Positions 6,793-10,829 of a stretch of 49,084 bases of DNA are shown in pieces. The position numbers and the translations under genes were made by a program. Position 1 is the first letter of the stretch, and every line of letters starts with the position of its first letter. The DNA comes from a virus (Duplodnaviria > Heunggongvirae > Uroviricota > Caudoviricetes). Below the pieces are notes generated by a model. That model saw only the letters and a program-made list of their open reading frames with translations, was not told the origin of the DNA and did not search any database. Location of the stretch: the IMG/VR virus record IMGVR_UViG_2851982317_000003, one strand, 5' to 3'.

Positions 6793-6999
6793 TTAGTGAT
6801 TCAGGCCGTTGCCGCGTCCGTCGAGAAAAACTTCCACGAGCAAGTCACGGGTATAAGTGCGCTCGATGCCGCGATGCAGATAAAGCCGTCCGCGTAAATT
6901 AGCTGATGCAGTCCAGGTACCATCTTTGTGTTTGACCAGCATTCCTGGCATGACCGCACCGCGATTAACGGTCTGCGTTCCGTAATGTTGATGAACCAT
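6793..6999 (-). CDS. kil: Kil-family host cell-division inhibitor (KilR-like), start at internal Met with AGGAG RBS
   Basis: 68-aa reading MVHQHYGTQTVNRGAVMPGMLVKHKDGTWTASANLRGRLYLHRG...VFLDGRG with KilR-like pattern (H..GT...PG..V.H...T..ASAN...LY...VFLGRDG); kil position next to gam. Confidence 0.6.
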   Translation of the reverse strand: MVHQHYGTQTVNRGAVMPGMLVKHKDGTWTASANLRGRLYLHRGIERTYTRDLLVEVFLDGRGNGLNH

Positions 7000-7259
7000 A
7001 AAAACTCCTGCCCGTAAGCTGGGCTGCTGAACATATAAAGACTTCTGCGCGTATTCAGGCGGTGGATGGCCGCCGGTTGTCATAACTAAGCCGCCTCGTT
7101 GAAGCGACTGAGGTATGAAGTGTTGAGTTGATTTCAGCTGGTCACACCGACGTTCACGCGTCCGCTTCACCCCTCGCACTCCCCGGAGCCTGCTGAAATT
7201 CAAGCTGCGGATCTAAGCGGTCATCGCAACGGTGAATCAGGTGATTGCCGTATCGTTGT

Positions 7260-7400
7260 GTTGTTGCGACATGGTGATAATAGCTATTGCTATTGATGAT
7301 ATCAATACTTATTGCTATTGATAGATGTGTTTTGATATTAAATATTTGATAGCAAAAAGAATTAATTTTGTGACTTGCATCGCATAGCGATAACTGAAGC
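7260..7400 (-). promoter_or_regulatory. Candidate OL/pL operator-promoter region (leftward early promoter)
   Basis: AT-rich block with repeated TTGCTATTG / TATTGAT motifs and an ATTGATGATATCAAT inverted repeat; the same words recur in the cI-cro intergenic region. Confidence 0.45.
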
Positions 7401-7444: not shown

Positions 7445-7472
7445 TAAAAGAAAACCCGGCACGGTGGCCGGG
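7445..7472 (-). terminator. Intrinsic terminator downstream of the DUF4411 gene (hairpin CCCGGC-ACGGTG-GCCGGG, U-run on minus strand; plausibly bidirectional)
   Basis: Perfect 6-bp GC stem with T-rich tracts on both sides, immediately after the stop of the 7478-7990 gene. Confidence 0.6.
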
Positions 7473-7477
7473 ACGTT

Positions 7478-7990
7478 TTATTTCAAAGAAAAATTATGAC
7501 TAGCGTATCTTGGAAGAAATTCATATAGTGTTAATGTCTTAACGCCGTGAGAAGCAGCAGCATCCGGGATCATTATTCTTTTTTTAGGTTTGCCACCGGA
7601 TGGTTTCTCATGGGTAATAATAGTATATCCATGTGTCATCGCATGGGCTATTAAAAAAGCATCTGCTTTTTCATGGCTTGCAAAATCAAACTTTGCCTTT
7701 TCGGTAACATCTAATTTAGTTGACCAATTTATTAACTTTGCATAATTTTCTATTGAACTATGCTCATCTTCGAAGAATGATGATGGTAACTCTTCTTTAA
7801 TCCATTTACACAATGGATCATCTTTTGCACATAGTTCTTTTTTTACAGCATTAATGCTATAAATCAGACCATTAATGTGTAAAGCGAGAAGAAAATCCCA
7901 AAATATTTTGCAATAATTGAAGTTATATGCAAAGTTTTTTGCCTCTATGAAGACATTACTATCAATTAAGAATTTTCCATTATGAATCAT
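7478..7990 (-). CDS. DUF4411-family (PIN-like fold) protein; second gene of the cI-proximal accessory cassette
   Basis: 170-aa ORF (MIHNGKFLIDSNVFIEAKNF...); start overlaps the stop of the upstream peptidase gene (ATGA), i.e. translationally coupled. Confidence 0.65.
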   Translation of the reverse strand: MIHNGKFLIDSNVFIEAKNFAYNFNYCKIFWDFLLALHINGLIYSINAVKKELCAKDDPLCKWIKEELPSSFFEDEHSSIENYAKLINWSTKLDVTEKAKFDFASHEKADAFLIAHAMTHGYTIITHEKPSGGKPKKRIMIPDAAASHGVKTLTLYEFLPRYASHNFSLK

Positions 7991-8581
7991 AGAGATTCTC
8001 GTTTTTTATAAAATTCAACAACTGTATCTGCTTTTACATTTAGCAGTACGCCTGCTTCCCTTAATGGTAATTGTTGAGACATTGCTTTGGAAATTATTAT
8101 ATTCGTAAGTTTTGGACTGTTGCGAACAGGTAATGTGTTAAAGAAAGAACCACCATTAGATTCTTTTTTGGGCTTATTGTAAGCTTGATCTTTAATTATC
8201 TCCAAAGTGTTTCTTTCTATCAAATCTAATTGTAACGCTTTGATTGCACAAGCGAAATCACTAACCTTAAATAACTTAGAAACCTCTTTTACTCGATAAT
8301 AATTATTATCGCTGGATGCATTAAGCCAGAAAGATTTGAAGAGATTATCAGGCATTAAGATTTCAGCAGCAACTTTATTACAAAAAGATTCTATGTTTTT
8401 TTCTGTGTCCCACCCAGAGACTCCATCGACTCCAAGCCAAAGATGAGCCACCTCATGAAATAATGTAAATACCTGCGCAGATAACGCGTCCGAGCTATTT
8501 ACAAAAATGATCGGAGCAACGCTATCAGATATACAGAAACCACGAAACTCTCGCGTGTCAAGTTTTCTTTTATTATTATTA

Positions 8582-8590
8582 CCCACAACA
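8582..8590. repeat. IS1 target-site duplication, left copy (CCCACAACA)
   Basis: 9-bp direct repeat abutting the IS1 left terminus. Confidence 0.9.
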
Positions 8591-8645
8591 GGTGATGCTG
8601 CCAACTTACTGATTTAGTGTATGATGGTGTTTTTGAGGTGCTCCA

Positions 8646-8921
8646 GTGGCTTCCATTTCCATCAGATGTCCTTCCTGCTCCGCTACTGAAGGCGTGGTGC
8701 GTAACGGCAAAAGCACTGCCGGACATCAGCGCTATCTCTGCTCTCACTGCCGTAAAACATGGCAACTGCAGTTCACTTACACCGCTTCTCAACCCGGTAC
8801 GCACCAGAAAATCATTGATATGGCCATGAATGGCGTTGGATGCCGGGCAACAGCCCGCATTATGGGCATTGGCCTCAACACGATTTTACGTCACTTAAAA
8901 AACTCAGGCCGCAGTCGGTAA
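8646..8921 (+). CDS. insA: IS1 InsA
   Basis: 91-aa [46 protein letters not shown]... Confidence 0.95.
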
Positions 8922-9343
8922 CCTCGCGCATACAGCCGGGCAGTGACGTCATCGTCTGCGCGGAAATGGACGAACAGTGGGGCTATGTCGGGGCTAAATC
9001 GCGCCAGCGCTGGCTGTTTTACGCGTATGACAGGCTCCGGAAGACGGTTGTTGCGCACGTATTCGGTGAACGCACTATGGCGACGCTGGGGCGTCTTATG
9101 AGCCTGCTGTCACCCTTTGACGTGGTGATATGGATGACGGATGGCTGGCCGCTGTATGAATCCCGCCTGAAGGGAAAGCTGCACGTAATCAGCAAGCGAT
9201 ATACGCAGCGAATTGAGCGGCATAACCTGAATCTGAGGCAGCACCTGGCACGGCTGGGACGGAAGTCGCTGTCGTTCTCAAAATCGGTGGAGCTGCATGA
9301 CAAAGTCATCGGGCATTATCTGAACATAAAACACTATCAATAA
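8840..9343 (+). CDS. insB: IS1 InsB (made as an InsAB' fusion by frameshifting)
   Basis: 167-aa ORF in the -1 frame overlapping insA. Confidence 0.9.
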
Positions 9344-9358
9344 GTTGGAGTCATTACC

Positions 9359-9367
9359 CCCACAACA
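9359..9367. repeat. IS1 target-site duplication, right copy (CCCACAACA)
   Basis: Identical 9-mer abutting the IS1 right terminus. Confidence 0.9.
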
Positions 9368-9934
9368 CCATTCTTGAAAACTAATACGCCAGTGTCTTCT
9401 ATTAGTTTTGCCACTTTAGAAAAATAGCTCTCAAAAGTGACATTTTTTATCTCTTTTTGTATATCAAAATGTATTGTGTTTGCTATGTCTGTAGCAACAA
9501 CCTTATAATTTAATTTTCTATTAAATTTAAATTTACCAATAAAATCGAGTGGATCATCATTACCATTTTCTCTTAAATAGTCTTTGTACCACTCAAGTTT
9601 ATATTCTATATCATAGTAAACATCAAAAAAATCTTTTCCTAACTCACGGCTATTTATAGCTTGCCTTAAGTCAGGGATCTTGGGTTTGGCTGGAGTTGGT
9701 GGCGTTTCAAGAAATAAAAAACCGAAAGGGATTCCTCCAATTTTTGCCAGTTTTTCTGCTGCGGATTTACTTACCACTCCGTTAAGAAATTTATTAATCT
9801 TTTTGGGCATGACTTGGTCAGCAAGAGTTTCGATAGAAACTCCTTGAGAATTTGCTATCCAATCAATCATCTTCCTAGACAATTGAAATTCAACCGCTGC
9901 CATGTTATCACCTAGTTAAAAAAACCTATTATTC

Positions 9935-9998
9935 AACAATTATTGTTGTGCACCTGATAGCTAACGTCAAGCCTAATTTATTGCCTTACTACAGTAAG
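9935..9998. promoter_or_regulatory. Two inverted repeats in the promoter-proximal gap between cI and the peptidase gene: CAACAATTATTGTTG (9935-9949) and CTTACTACAGTAAG (9985-9998)
   Basis: Perfect 7-1-7 and 6-2-6 palindromes in the 129-bp intergenic region; candidate operator sites. Confidence 0.35.
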
Positions 9999-10032
9999 CT
10001 GAAAAGCGAAGTGCATAATTTTGTTCTGATTT

Positions 10033-10761
10033 CTACCCATGCTTTCTATATGTCTGCGGCATGCTCCCGATGACTTTCCCGAAGATGAACACGCGGTTCA
10101 TCTCGTCTTTCTCGATCGGGTCCCACGGTGAGTAGCTCTTGTTATCAGAGATAACCAGCAGCTTATCCTTCATCATTTGCAGGCGTTTTACATGGGCGGT
10201 GTCGTCATACAGAAACGCATAGATACCATCACCGTCGAAAGATTTAACCGTGATATCAACGAACAGCAGATCACCTGGTTCGATCGTTCCTGACATGCTG
10301 TCACCACGCACGTTAATGATGCGGATATTTTCCGCCTTCCTGCCATCGAACATGTGACGAGCATCGTCAAACGAGTATTCAACCGAGCGTAGAACTTCTA
10401 CAAACTCACGGTTGATTACACCCGGCCCGGCACTGACTTCTATATCAAGAACGTCAATTTTGAAGTATTTGGAATGGCTGATAGCAGGCTTCCCTGATTG
10501 TTGACCGTCATTTCTCATCGGGCCTATGCCTGAAGAGAGCCATTCTGTTCGAACACCCAATGCATTAGCTATTTCAACAATTTTTGTTGAGCCGCGCGCG
10601 TTGCCGCTTGTCAGTCTCCAGATTGTGGGTTGAGCTACGCCAGACGCCTTTGCAAGAGCGCCTTGAGACATTCCAGATTGTTCCATCGCTAGATTTAAGC
10701 GATCAGCAAGAGTTTCTTTTTTCATAAGTTTTAATTTATACGCTTGCGTATTGATGGTCAA
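10033..10761 (-). CDS. cI: CI-type prophage repressor (N-terminal HTH + C-terminal LexA-like S24 self-cleaving domain); true start probably the internal Met MKKETLAD
   Basis: HTH (QGALAKASGVAQPTIWRL) and S24 motif (VRGDSMSGTIEPGDLLFVD...VKRL); divergent from the cro-like gene. Confidence 0.85.
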   Translation of the reverse strand: MTINTQAYKLKLMKKETLADRLNLAMEQSGMSQGALAKASGVAQPTIWRLTSGNARGSTKIVEIANALGVRTEWLSSGIGPMRNDGQQSGKPAISHSKYFKIDVLDIEVSAGPGVINREFVEVLRSVEYSFDDARHMFDGRKAENIRIINVRGDSMSGTIEPGDLLFVDITVKSFDGDGIYAFLYDDTAHVKRLQMMKDKLLVISDNKSYSPWDPIEKDEMNRVFIFGKVIGSMPQTYRKHG

Positions 10762-10829
10762 AACACGTTTTGCTATTGCTTGGATTAATACGCATTGCTA
10801 TTATTCATTCATTGCAATACCAATAGGAA
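10735..10829. promoter_or_regulatory. OR / pRM-pR divergent operator-promoter region
   Basis: Intergenic region between divergent cI and cro-like genes; palindrome ATACGCTTGCGTAT (10738-10751) and TTGCTATTG motifs. Confidence 0.55.

Follow-up and report, generated by a model that had tools for sequence, protein, structure and literature searches.

Introduction

In phage lambda, rexA-rexB is an accessory exclusion function expressed by the lysogen, and RexAB acts as a membrane ion-channel system. Here we analyse a two-gene cassette that lies, like rexA-rexB, between the repressor gene cI and the left operator (OL), on the same strand as cI and with a terminator before OL, in a lambda-like prophage of Escherichia coli. 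The prophage is part of a 49,084-nt stretch of DNA (IMG/VR virus record IMGVR_UViG_2851982317_000003; referred to as the window throughout) that is 100% identical to E. coli ATCC 43886 (CP024256), in which the prophage adjoins ybhC. RefSeq labels the two products only "ImmA/IrrE family metallo-endopeptidase" and "DUF4411 family protein", and a preliminary description made from the sequence had left the pair unnamed. We assign the pair by homology to the VapBC52 family, and we regard the cassette as quite probably a VapBC52-type toxin-antitoxin (TA)/abortive-infection module, an accessory cargo that occupies the cI-to-OL slot of the lambda-like prophage in E. coli ATCC 43886.

VapBC52 of Mycobacterium tuberculosis is encoded by Rv2515c-Rv2514c (PDB 9vzy/9vzz; Nucleic Acids Research (NAR), June 2026; PMC13273310). 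Its 415-aa antitoxin, VapB52, consists of an Xre-like N-terminal domain (NTD) that binds the toxin and is the part required for this binding, a middle domain (MD) that is a CapP-like HExxH peptidase, and a four-helix C-terminal domain that blocks the PIN toxin's active site; antitoxin and toxin form a 1:2 VapB52:VapC52 complex in the crystal structure (PMC13273310). Single-stranded DNA (ssDNA) triggers self-cleavage of VapB52, whose substrate is VapB52 itself, with the cut falling in the NTD/MD linker, which carries a conserved "FR" motif, and the PIN toxin freed in this way, with its acidic residues D6, E48, D99 and E117, cleaves tRNA (PMC13273310). Overexpression of VapC52 raises resistance to mycobacteriophages (PMC13273310).

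RosmerTA is a two-gene defence/TA class that joins RmrA, an antitoxin composed of a helix-turn-helix (HTH) domain and an ImmA-type Zn-peptidase, to a variable toxin (Millman 2022; PMC10440598); the founder RmrT toxins either have no known domain or are membrane-depolarising. PIN-like partners of ImmA-type antitoxins were noted in NetFlax (Ernits et al. 2023), and DUF4411.1 was predicted to be a toxin encoded downstream of fused HTH-DUF955 genes (Matelska et al. 2017; PMC5499597). PD-lambda-2 of E. coli is a TA-like abortive-infection system of three genes, for a HigB-like, an Xre-peptidase and a P4-antitoxin-like protein (Vassallo et al. 2022). The kind of module analysed here is already known, since its pairing was predicted in 2017 (PMC5499597) and its structure and biochemistry were characterised in June 2026 (PMC13273310). 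The novel points here are that the E. coli prophage pair can be assigned to the VapBC52 family, how strict and widespread the pairing is, its recurrence beside repressor genes in phages, where exactly the cargo slot begins and ends, and the indication that the cysteine switch is not family-wide.

Results

A gene pair homologous to VapB52 and VapC52

Both genes of the cassette are read from the minus strand. The peptidase gene, the putative antitoxin gene, is split by insertion sequence IS1 into a 5' part (9359-9903, codons 1-182), defined by the list of open reading frames (ORFs) and by reconstruction, and a 3' part (7987-8590, codons 182-379), which holds the Peptidase_M78 core. The DUF4411/PIN-like gene, the putative toxin gene (7478-7990, 170 aa, recognised by Pfam DUF4411), follows directly, and the peptidase stop codon and the DUF4411 start codon overlap by ATGA. 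The antitoxin gene is accordingly directly upstream of the toxin gene, as required of a VapBC52-type TA. The preliminary description had reported a translationally coupled pair directly 3' of cI and on its strand; all the elements that it described, including the overlapping stop and start codons, were recovered at their coordinates, and the rexAB-like position and polarity that it proposed are seen in the annotation of both ATCC 43886 and strain IAI1.

The link to VapBC52 was reached through a full-text literature search for DUF4411, followed by a sequence search of the PDB. The peptidase profile matched 9vzy_A (VapB52) with an E value of 2.8e-24, the alignment taking in positions 8-370 of the 376-position profile and residues 3-385 of the chain, and the DUF4411 profile matched 9vzy_D (VapC52) at 7.8e-13 (hhalign 98.1%). 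Single-sequence searches against the VapBC52 chains gave E values of 8e-7 and 7e-6, at pairwise identities of 27% for the peptidase and 23% for the toxin. Both proteins are therefore homologues of a characterised pair, the peptidase over its full length, which lends support to the earlier suggestion of a TA or defence cargo. The alignments place D10, E52, D110 and E128 of the DUF4411 protein on the VapC52 active-site acids D6, E48, D99 and E117, place H224, H228 and E246 of the peptidase on the VapB52 Zn ligands H216, H220 and E245, and place D78-L79-R80 on the D-F-R of VapB52 in the NTD/MD linker.

The window pair thus shares with VapBC52 its two-gene architecture and gene order, full-length antitoxin homology, a DUF4411 PIN toxin with the same four acids, the Zn ligands H, H and E, and the linker motif D-[F/L]-R. 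It differs in having L-R rather than F-R in the linker motif and Ser237 rather than the Cys switch. Moreover, the window pair is E. coli phage cargo downstream of cI, whereas VapBC52 is a mycobacterial chromosomal locus, and the window copy is broken by IS1.

For the rebuilt peptidase, Pfam found Peptidase_M78 at residues 169-291 (E 1.2e-13), and full-length PHROGs families matched both proteins of the pair (E 3e-76 and 1e-67). Modelling and Foldseek searches of the peptidase were run on P0063, a partial NCBI E. coli entry identical to residues 1-369 of the rebuilt protein. The AlphaFold2 (AF2) model, with a predicted local distance difference test score (pLDDT) of 87.5, shows five N-terminal helices (10-64), a low-pLDDT linker (70-89), an HExxH domain with four beta-strands and helices, and then a helical C-terminal domain. 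Its best Foldseek matches were CapP, IrrE and PprI-ssDNA, with a probability of 1.0 to 7t5t, 3dti and 8sln for the middle domain, and the N-terminal domain matched the controller protein C.BclI (probability 0.92). Projected onto the gene, the 5' part encodes the five-helix Xre-like N-terminal domain, the flexible linker with D78-L79-R80 and the start of the middle domain, and the M78 Zn-peptidase core (H224-E225-x-x-H228, E246, C249-N250) falls in the 3' part, together with a helical subdomain and the C-terminal domain of four helices. The full-length profile match, the AF2 layout and the Foldseek domain matches together give the three-domain antitoxin layout of about 380-415 aa, and reconstruction, Pfam, AF2 model and Foldseek agree with the 379-aa HTH plus HExxH ImmA/IrrE peptidase that had first been proposed.

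The peptidase residues H224, E225, H228, E246, D78 and R80 are invariant among 75 relatives (75/75), and C249 and N250 are conserved. Between the invariant D and R of the linker motif, the middle residue is F in 56/75 and L in 14/75. C229 of VapB52, its "cysteine switch", aligns with S237 of the window peptidase; this position is Ser in 69/75 relatives, and the loop is devoid of Cys in 74/75. The Cys switch looks from these alignments like a feature of VapB52 and CapP rather than of the family as a whole.

The DUF4411 protein matched its Pfam domain at E 1.2e-37, so that searches of both proteins with profile hidden Markov models, the check proposed in the preliminary description, returned a recognised domain for each, at E values well outside what chance would give. 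A PIN fold is seen in its AF2 model (pLDDT 88.7), whose 15 best Foldseek matches in the PDB were all PIN-domain chains, mostly VapC toxins, in keeping with the PIN-like character noted earlier. D10, N12, E52, D110 and E128 are invariant in 36/36 relatives. The Foldseek PDB set ran to April 2026 without 9vzy and gave generic VapC and CapP/IrrE matches for the two proteins.

Comparison with catalogued defence systems

The comparison with catalogued defence systems that had been proposed gave a divided outcome in PADLOC: the peptidase matched capP at 1e-14 and RmrA weakly, and the DUF4411 protein had no match. The RmrA models gave twelve weak matches (E 6e-8 to 8e-4, all ≤30 bits), two of which span most of the peptidase, and PD-Lambda-2_B matched it weakly at residues 212-289 (E 8.5e-4). 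The pair is within the broader RosmerTA/ImmA-antitoxin class (Millman 2022; PMC10440598), with which it has in common two genes and an HTH plus ImmA-type peptidase as putative antitoxin; it differs in that its DUF4411 protein matches no RmrT model and the RmrA matches are weak. Strict RosmerTA membership as modelled in PADLOC-DB v2 was rejected because there was no RmrT match and only weak RmrA matches were obtained.

The middle-domain fold resembles those of CapP-CapH of the cyclic-oligonucleotide-based antiphage signalling systems (CBASS) and of IrrE/PprI-DdrO, in which a protease switched on by ssDNA or DNA damage cuts an HTH protein. Those proteases, however, act on a separate repressor, with transcription of CBASS or repair genes as the output, whereas in the window peptidase the HTH-like domain is fused, the substrate would be the protein itself and the output would be release of a nuclease; no CBASS genes lie nearby. 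An ImmA/ImmR or CapP/CapH protease-repressor pair was rejected, as the peptidase has its HTH-like domain fused rather than a separate cognate HTH repressor, and CI has an S24 domain of its own. PD-lambda-2 has a similar Xre-HTH plus ImmA/IrrE peptidase fusion, but it comprises three genes, its fusion is itself toxic, it has no DUF4411 protein, and its match to the window peptidase is marginal (E 8.5e-4). Despite the common position, the window pair has no sequence or domain kinship with lambda rexA-rexB, and it differs further in its putative nuclease and putative promoter of its own; Pfam found only Peptidase_M78 and DUF4411 in the cassette, and no RexA or RexB homologue.

Distribution and obligate pairing

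A scan of one genome per species returned 80 DUF4411 loci, which span Proteobacteria, Actinobacteria, Chloroflexi, Spirochaetes, Planctomycetes, Bacteroidetes, Acidobacteria, Cyanobacteria and others. A full-length peptidase homologue (~380 aa) is encoded directly upstream on the same strand in 77/77 loci for which upstream DNA was available, and the peptidase gene is directly upstream of DUF4411 in 73/73 assessable IMG/VR viral contigs. The neighbourhood survey suggested in the preliminary description has thus been carried out, and the pairing was found at every assessable locus in both sets. This obligate pairing is in line with what Matelska et al. 2017 had predicted, and also with the ImmA-antitoxin zone described by Ernits et al. 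2023 and with the RosmerTA class.

Of the 73 viral contigs, at least 34 have a gene for a CI/LexA-type repressor immediately upstream and on the same strand; its product shows 24-99% identity to the CI of the window or 33-65% identity to that of lambda. Among the genome loci, only 3/80 have a CI/LexA-like gene upstream. On these counts, the module, when in a phage, recurrently takes a rex-like position. One genome locus outside phages, in an Acidobacteria metagenome-assembled genome (L062, 2114-2704), has a LexA-like gene whose product is 38% identical to E. coli LexA directly upstream of the pair, another link of the module to an SOS-type regulator.

That very diverged versions of the pair stand directly downstream of LexA-like CI genes of quite different alleles, in at least 34/73 viral contigs, hints that the module in temperate phages might be connected to the switch between lysis and lysogeny instead of riding along as a defence gene, a doubtful proposal to which we give little weight. 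If it were true, both proteins would respond to ssDNA, CI via RecA and the antitoxin directly; PIN nuclease could be released at the prophage's own induction and could reshape the tRNA pool, shut down the host or serve as a device for commitment or as a fail-safe. Ser in place of Cys would then imply an activation chemistry other than the cysteine switch of CapP and VapB52, and a new question of self-immunity would arise, namely how the phage keeps from killing its own burst.

Among cultured phages, the 50,697 INPHARED records held one distant DUF4411 match (27% identity). At three IMG/VR loci (L158-L160), a full-length peptidase gene is followed by a DUF4411 match over residues 6-47 only; the toxin there may be truncated or replaced by another toxin, and at L159 the short match is not explained by the contig end. 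A literature search on prophage-encoded defence against temperate phages found nothing relevant to the pair; Rousset 2021 concerns a different prophage TA, without DUF4411.

A cargo slot between cI and OL

The cI-type repressor gene (10033-10725, minus strand) is a RefSeq coding sequence (CDS) in both ATCC 43886 and IAI1 and encodes 230 aa with an Xre HTH and a LexA-like S24 self-cleaving domain (Pfam HTH_3, E 1.8e-6; Peptidase_S24, E 1.3e-18). GC content is 30-37% in the cassette versus about 50% in its flanks. The identical CI protein (WP_001295669.1) was found with a different cassette in the same slot, composed of toxin, MqsA-like antitoxin and SecB chaperone (TAC); the first gene of this TAC-like cassette encodes a hypothetical protein, beside the MqsA-like antitoxin and the SecB chaperone. 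Between the window and the TAC-carrying prophage, homology breaks off precisely at the stop codon of cI; it sets in again at the terminator, just behind the stop codon of the cargo, and takes in the OL side. The OL-side flank is common to more than 1,200 genomes.

Other cargoes were surveyed in an evenly spaced sample of prophages having both flanks in common with the window. Their slots hold HipA plus DUF3037, a PP2C phosphatase plus a Ser/Thr kinase, SIR2, ASCH, DUF6932, DUF6414, DUF7946 or BamE, and some are empty. Loci L083-L085 belong to this comparison of the cI-to-OL slot, and several of the slot cargoes are uncharacterised.

An intrinsic-terminator-like hairpin, CCCGGCCACCGTGCCGGG, followed by the T-run TTTTCTTTT, was located by the terminator scan at 7455-7472 (minus strand). 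Beyond it, the OL-like operator repeats (7271-7360) resemble the cI/cro intergenic region and contain internal palindromes; 49 nt of them (7271-7319) are 73% identical to 10754-10802 in that region. A strong terminator closing the cassette just before the OL-like repeats had been described: its presence holds, but its ownership by the cassette does not, as it is common to prophages with other cargo. Because homology ends at the cI stop codon and resumes at the terminator, we assign the terminator and OL to the backbone, closing the slot whatever the cargo, and the 129-nt leader to the cassette. By the same alignments, the slot (window 7473-10032) is a hotspot of cargo exchange with base-precise junctions, and the pair is classed as accessory cargo and not as part of the switch because the same cI allele occurs with other TA/defence-like cargo, or none, in the slot.

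The same comparisons bear on a possible role of the peptidase in induction, as an ImmA/CapP-like anti-repressor with CI or another phage repressor as its substrate. Its M78 domain belongs to the ImmA/IrrE/CapP family, cleavers of HTH repressors, and the gene adjoins cI in many phages. CI, however, has its own S24 self-cleavage domain, the identical CI works in prophages with TAC, and related prophages hold other cargo or nothing; in addition, the peptidase always comes with DUF4411, including at loci remote from any phage, VapB52 has itself as substrate, and the CI sequence is without a D-[F/L]-R motif. An anti-repressor or core-switch role was rejected, given the same CI allele with other cargo or an empty slot, and we consider it highly improbable, as the preliminary description had argued from the LexA-like domain of CI.

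Beyond OL, RefSeq annotates a Kil-like cell-division inhibitor CDS at window 6793-6999. No N-like antiterminator gene is annotated or evident between OL/pL and the kil-like gene (window 7000-7270), and the leader RNA from OL to kil folds no better than shuffled sequences (z -1.03). Neither Rfam families nor tRNAs were found in the window.

Leader and promoter of the cassette

The 129-nt leader (9904-10032, minus strand) between the cI stop codon and the peptidase start codon is not found in the TAC-carrying prophage with the same cI. The promoter scan located in it, on the minus strand, a -35 TTGACG (9970-9965), a 17-nt spacer and a -10 AACAAT (9947-9942); a Shine-Dalgarno sequence, AGGTGAT, is also present. 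Nine cassettes with peptidases about 52-78% identical to that of the window have TTGAC and an AAnAnT -10 at a fixed distance; the spacer itself is not conserved. A promoter of the cassette's own thus has good comparative support, since -35 and -10 are kept at the same spacing in nine diverged cassettes. In the terminator scan, no terminator-like site separates cI from the cassette, which makes read-through of the cI transcript likely as well.

The palindrome CAACAATAATTGTTG (9934-9948) overlaps the -10. Upstream of 73 peptidase genes, the best perfect palindrome averaged 5.07 nt versus 4.97 nt in shuffles, and an operator palindrome as a family feature was rejected for lack of enrichment in these 73 upstream regions. 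The remaining lead is an ACAAT/ATTGT repeat at the -10 of some enterobacterial cassettes. A 90% identical second copy of the palindrome region 9932-9951 (TTCAACAATTTTTGTTGAGC) lies inside cI at 10573-10592, 641 nt upstream; it may be due to chance, cI being backbone that occurs with other cargoes, or may be a second binding site.

IS1 interruption and the intact allele

The 768-bp IS1 (8591-9358, plus strand, insA/insAB'), recognised by its terminal inverted repeats and annotated in RefSeq as IS1 transposase, is oriented opposite to the cassette and interrupts the peptidase gene at codon 182. It is flanked by perfect copies of the 9-bp target duplication CCCACAACA at 8582-8590 and 9359-9367. 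Removal of IS1 and one duplication copy yields a single ORF of exactly 379 aa, whose product is identical over 369 residues to P0063, its top database match, and IAI1 has an uninterrupted 1,140-nt ImmA/IrrE CDS (WP_000741702.1) at the same position. With its 129-nt leader, the intact IAI1 cassette spans NC_011741 815954-817731. The cassette was found in 33 of 5,426 complete E. coli genomes, in every case adjoining this cI. IS1 is absent from 31 of the 33 carriers, IAI1 among them, and the IS1 allele occurs only in ATCC 43886 and E2528-C1. The DUF4411 protein (WP_000581650.1) is identical between the IS1 and intact alleles, and close relatives of the same prophage have an unbroken peptidase gene. 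The insertion looks recent on these three grounds, namely the 31 intact carriers, the identical toxin and the intact close relatives.

We judge the window copy to be inactivated, unable to sense or fire, because IS1 splits the antitoxin ahead of the HExxH motif. In the IS1 allele the 5' part reads into IS1 to give a 188-aa product (ORF 9337-9903). The intact toxin gene is probably tolerated through polarity of IS1 on downstream transcription; as a second reason, the 188-aa N-terminal fragment may, by analogy with VapB52, keep the toxin-binding domain without the peptidase. At the end of IS1 there is a promoter-like site (8575-8604, minus strand) with a -35 TTGGCA in the IS1 inverted repeat, an 18-nt spacer and a -10 AATAAT in cassette DNA, directed into the peptidase 3' half and DUF4411; it could give residual toxin expression in the IS1 allele, and is a consensus match only, the number of such sites being not above background.

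An IS66-like ISCro1 element and an OmpC-like porin gene are also in the prophage region (window 1-25000), and related strains bear an additional IS3 element. The prophage is therefore gathering insertion sequences.

That IS1 struck the peptidase gene and left DUF4411 intact could also be read with the polarity of the pair reversed: the HTH-peptidase would inhibit growth, DUF4411 would be a regulator or accessory nuclease, and IS1 would have removed a toxic gene. A proposal of this sort was originally made for COG2856, and the Xre-peptidase fusion of PD-lambda-2 is toxic alone and is rescued by its partner. In VapBC52, by contrast, whose antitoxin is homologous over its full length, toxicity resides in the PIN protein and is neutralised by the peptidase protein; a crystal structure of their complex has been solved. 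The catalytic residues of the PIN protein do not vary, PD-Lambda-2_B is only a weak match to the peptidase (E 8.5e-4, residues 212-289), and in RosmerTA an rmrA deletion was unobtainable. We therefore hold the reversed polarity to be very improbable and retain the peptidase as putative antitoxin and DUF4411 as putative toxin.

Discussion

The anatomy of the cassette, its homology, its conserved residues, its strict pairing, its cargo status and its slot are observed in the E. coli locus itself. Combined with the mechanism of VapBC52, they suggest the following course of events. In the lysogen, the operon's own conserved sigma-70 promoter, and probably read-through from cI as well, would drive transcription of the intact operon as far as the backbone terminator. 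The 379-aa antitoxin would hold a dimer of the 170-aa PIN nuclease inactive, its N-terminal domain gripping the toxin and its C-terminal domain covering the active site. Build-up of ssDNA during phage replication or recombination, or upon DNA damage, would activate the CapP/IrrE-like Zn-peptidase middle domain, which would cut the linker of its own N-terminal domain at the D-[F/L]-R motif (D78-L79-R80). The freed PIN nuclease (D10, E52, D110, E128) would then cleave tRNA, so that translation stops and the infection is aborted. The 1:2 complex, ssDNA-triggered self-cleavage, tRNA cleavage and phage resistance were demonstrated for the M. tuberculosis homologue (PMC13273310) and would apply to the E. 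coli pair by analogy.

Several points weigh against a VapBC52-type abortive-infection module. The mechanism is taken over entirely from a homologue with only about 23-27% identity, and the anti-phage evidence for VapC52 comes from toxin overexpression only (PMC13273310). Ser stands in place of the cysteine switch, and therefore activation may differ. The DUF4411 protein matches no PADLOC model at E ≤1, the upstream regions show no family-wide operator palindrome, and the PD-lambda-2 fusion is an example of opposite polarity. Finally, an intact toxin gene beside a broken antitoxin gene is unexpected for a TA pair, and its explanation by polarity or by the N-terminal fragment is an inference.

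As an alternative, the pair could be a selfish addiction module that stabilises the prophage or its immunity region and gives no phage defence, the rex slot merely providing expression in the lysogen. The pair is widespread in the chromosomes of many phyla without phage context, with a CI/LexA-like gene upstream in just 3/80 loci; loss through IS1 is tolerated, and the missing PADLOC match of DUF4411 and the overexpression-based evidence for VapC52 point the same way. However, the other occupants of the slot are mostly of TA/defence type (TAC, HipA, SIR2, Ser/Thr kinase), the middle domain resembles CapP, the ssDNA sensor of CBASS defence, RosmerTA systems with ImmA-type antitoxins do defend, and the pair recurs beside repressors in at least 34 viral contigs. 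The case for defence is indirect; we consider a role in stabilisation alone unlikely and favour the TA/abortive-infection module.

The window copy, inactivated by IS1, is of little functional consequence in itself. Through the assignment to VapBC52, however, an uncharacterised E. coli prophage pair gains a name and a testable mechanism, and the VapBC52 family emerges as an obligate two-gene module across many bacterial phyla and at least 73 viral contigs. An antitoxin that senses ssDNA and cleaves itself has been described in M. tuberculosis, and the intact IAI1 allele would provide a tractable model of it in E. coli. In lambda-like prophages of E. coli the cargo slot has precise bounds, from the cI stop codon to the common terminator; TA/defence-like cassettes are exchanged in it, and a search for new defence genes expressed in the lysogen could conveniently be made there.

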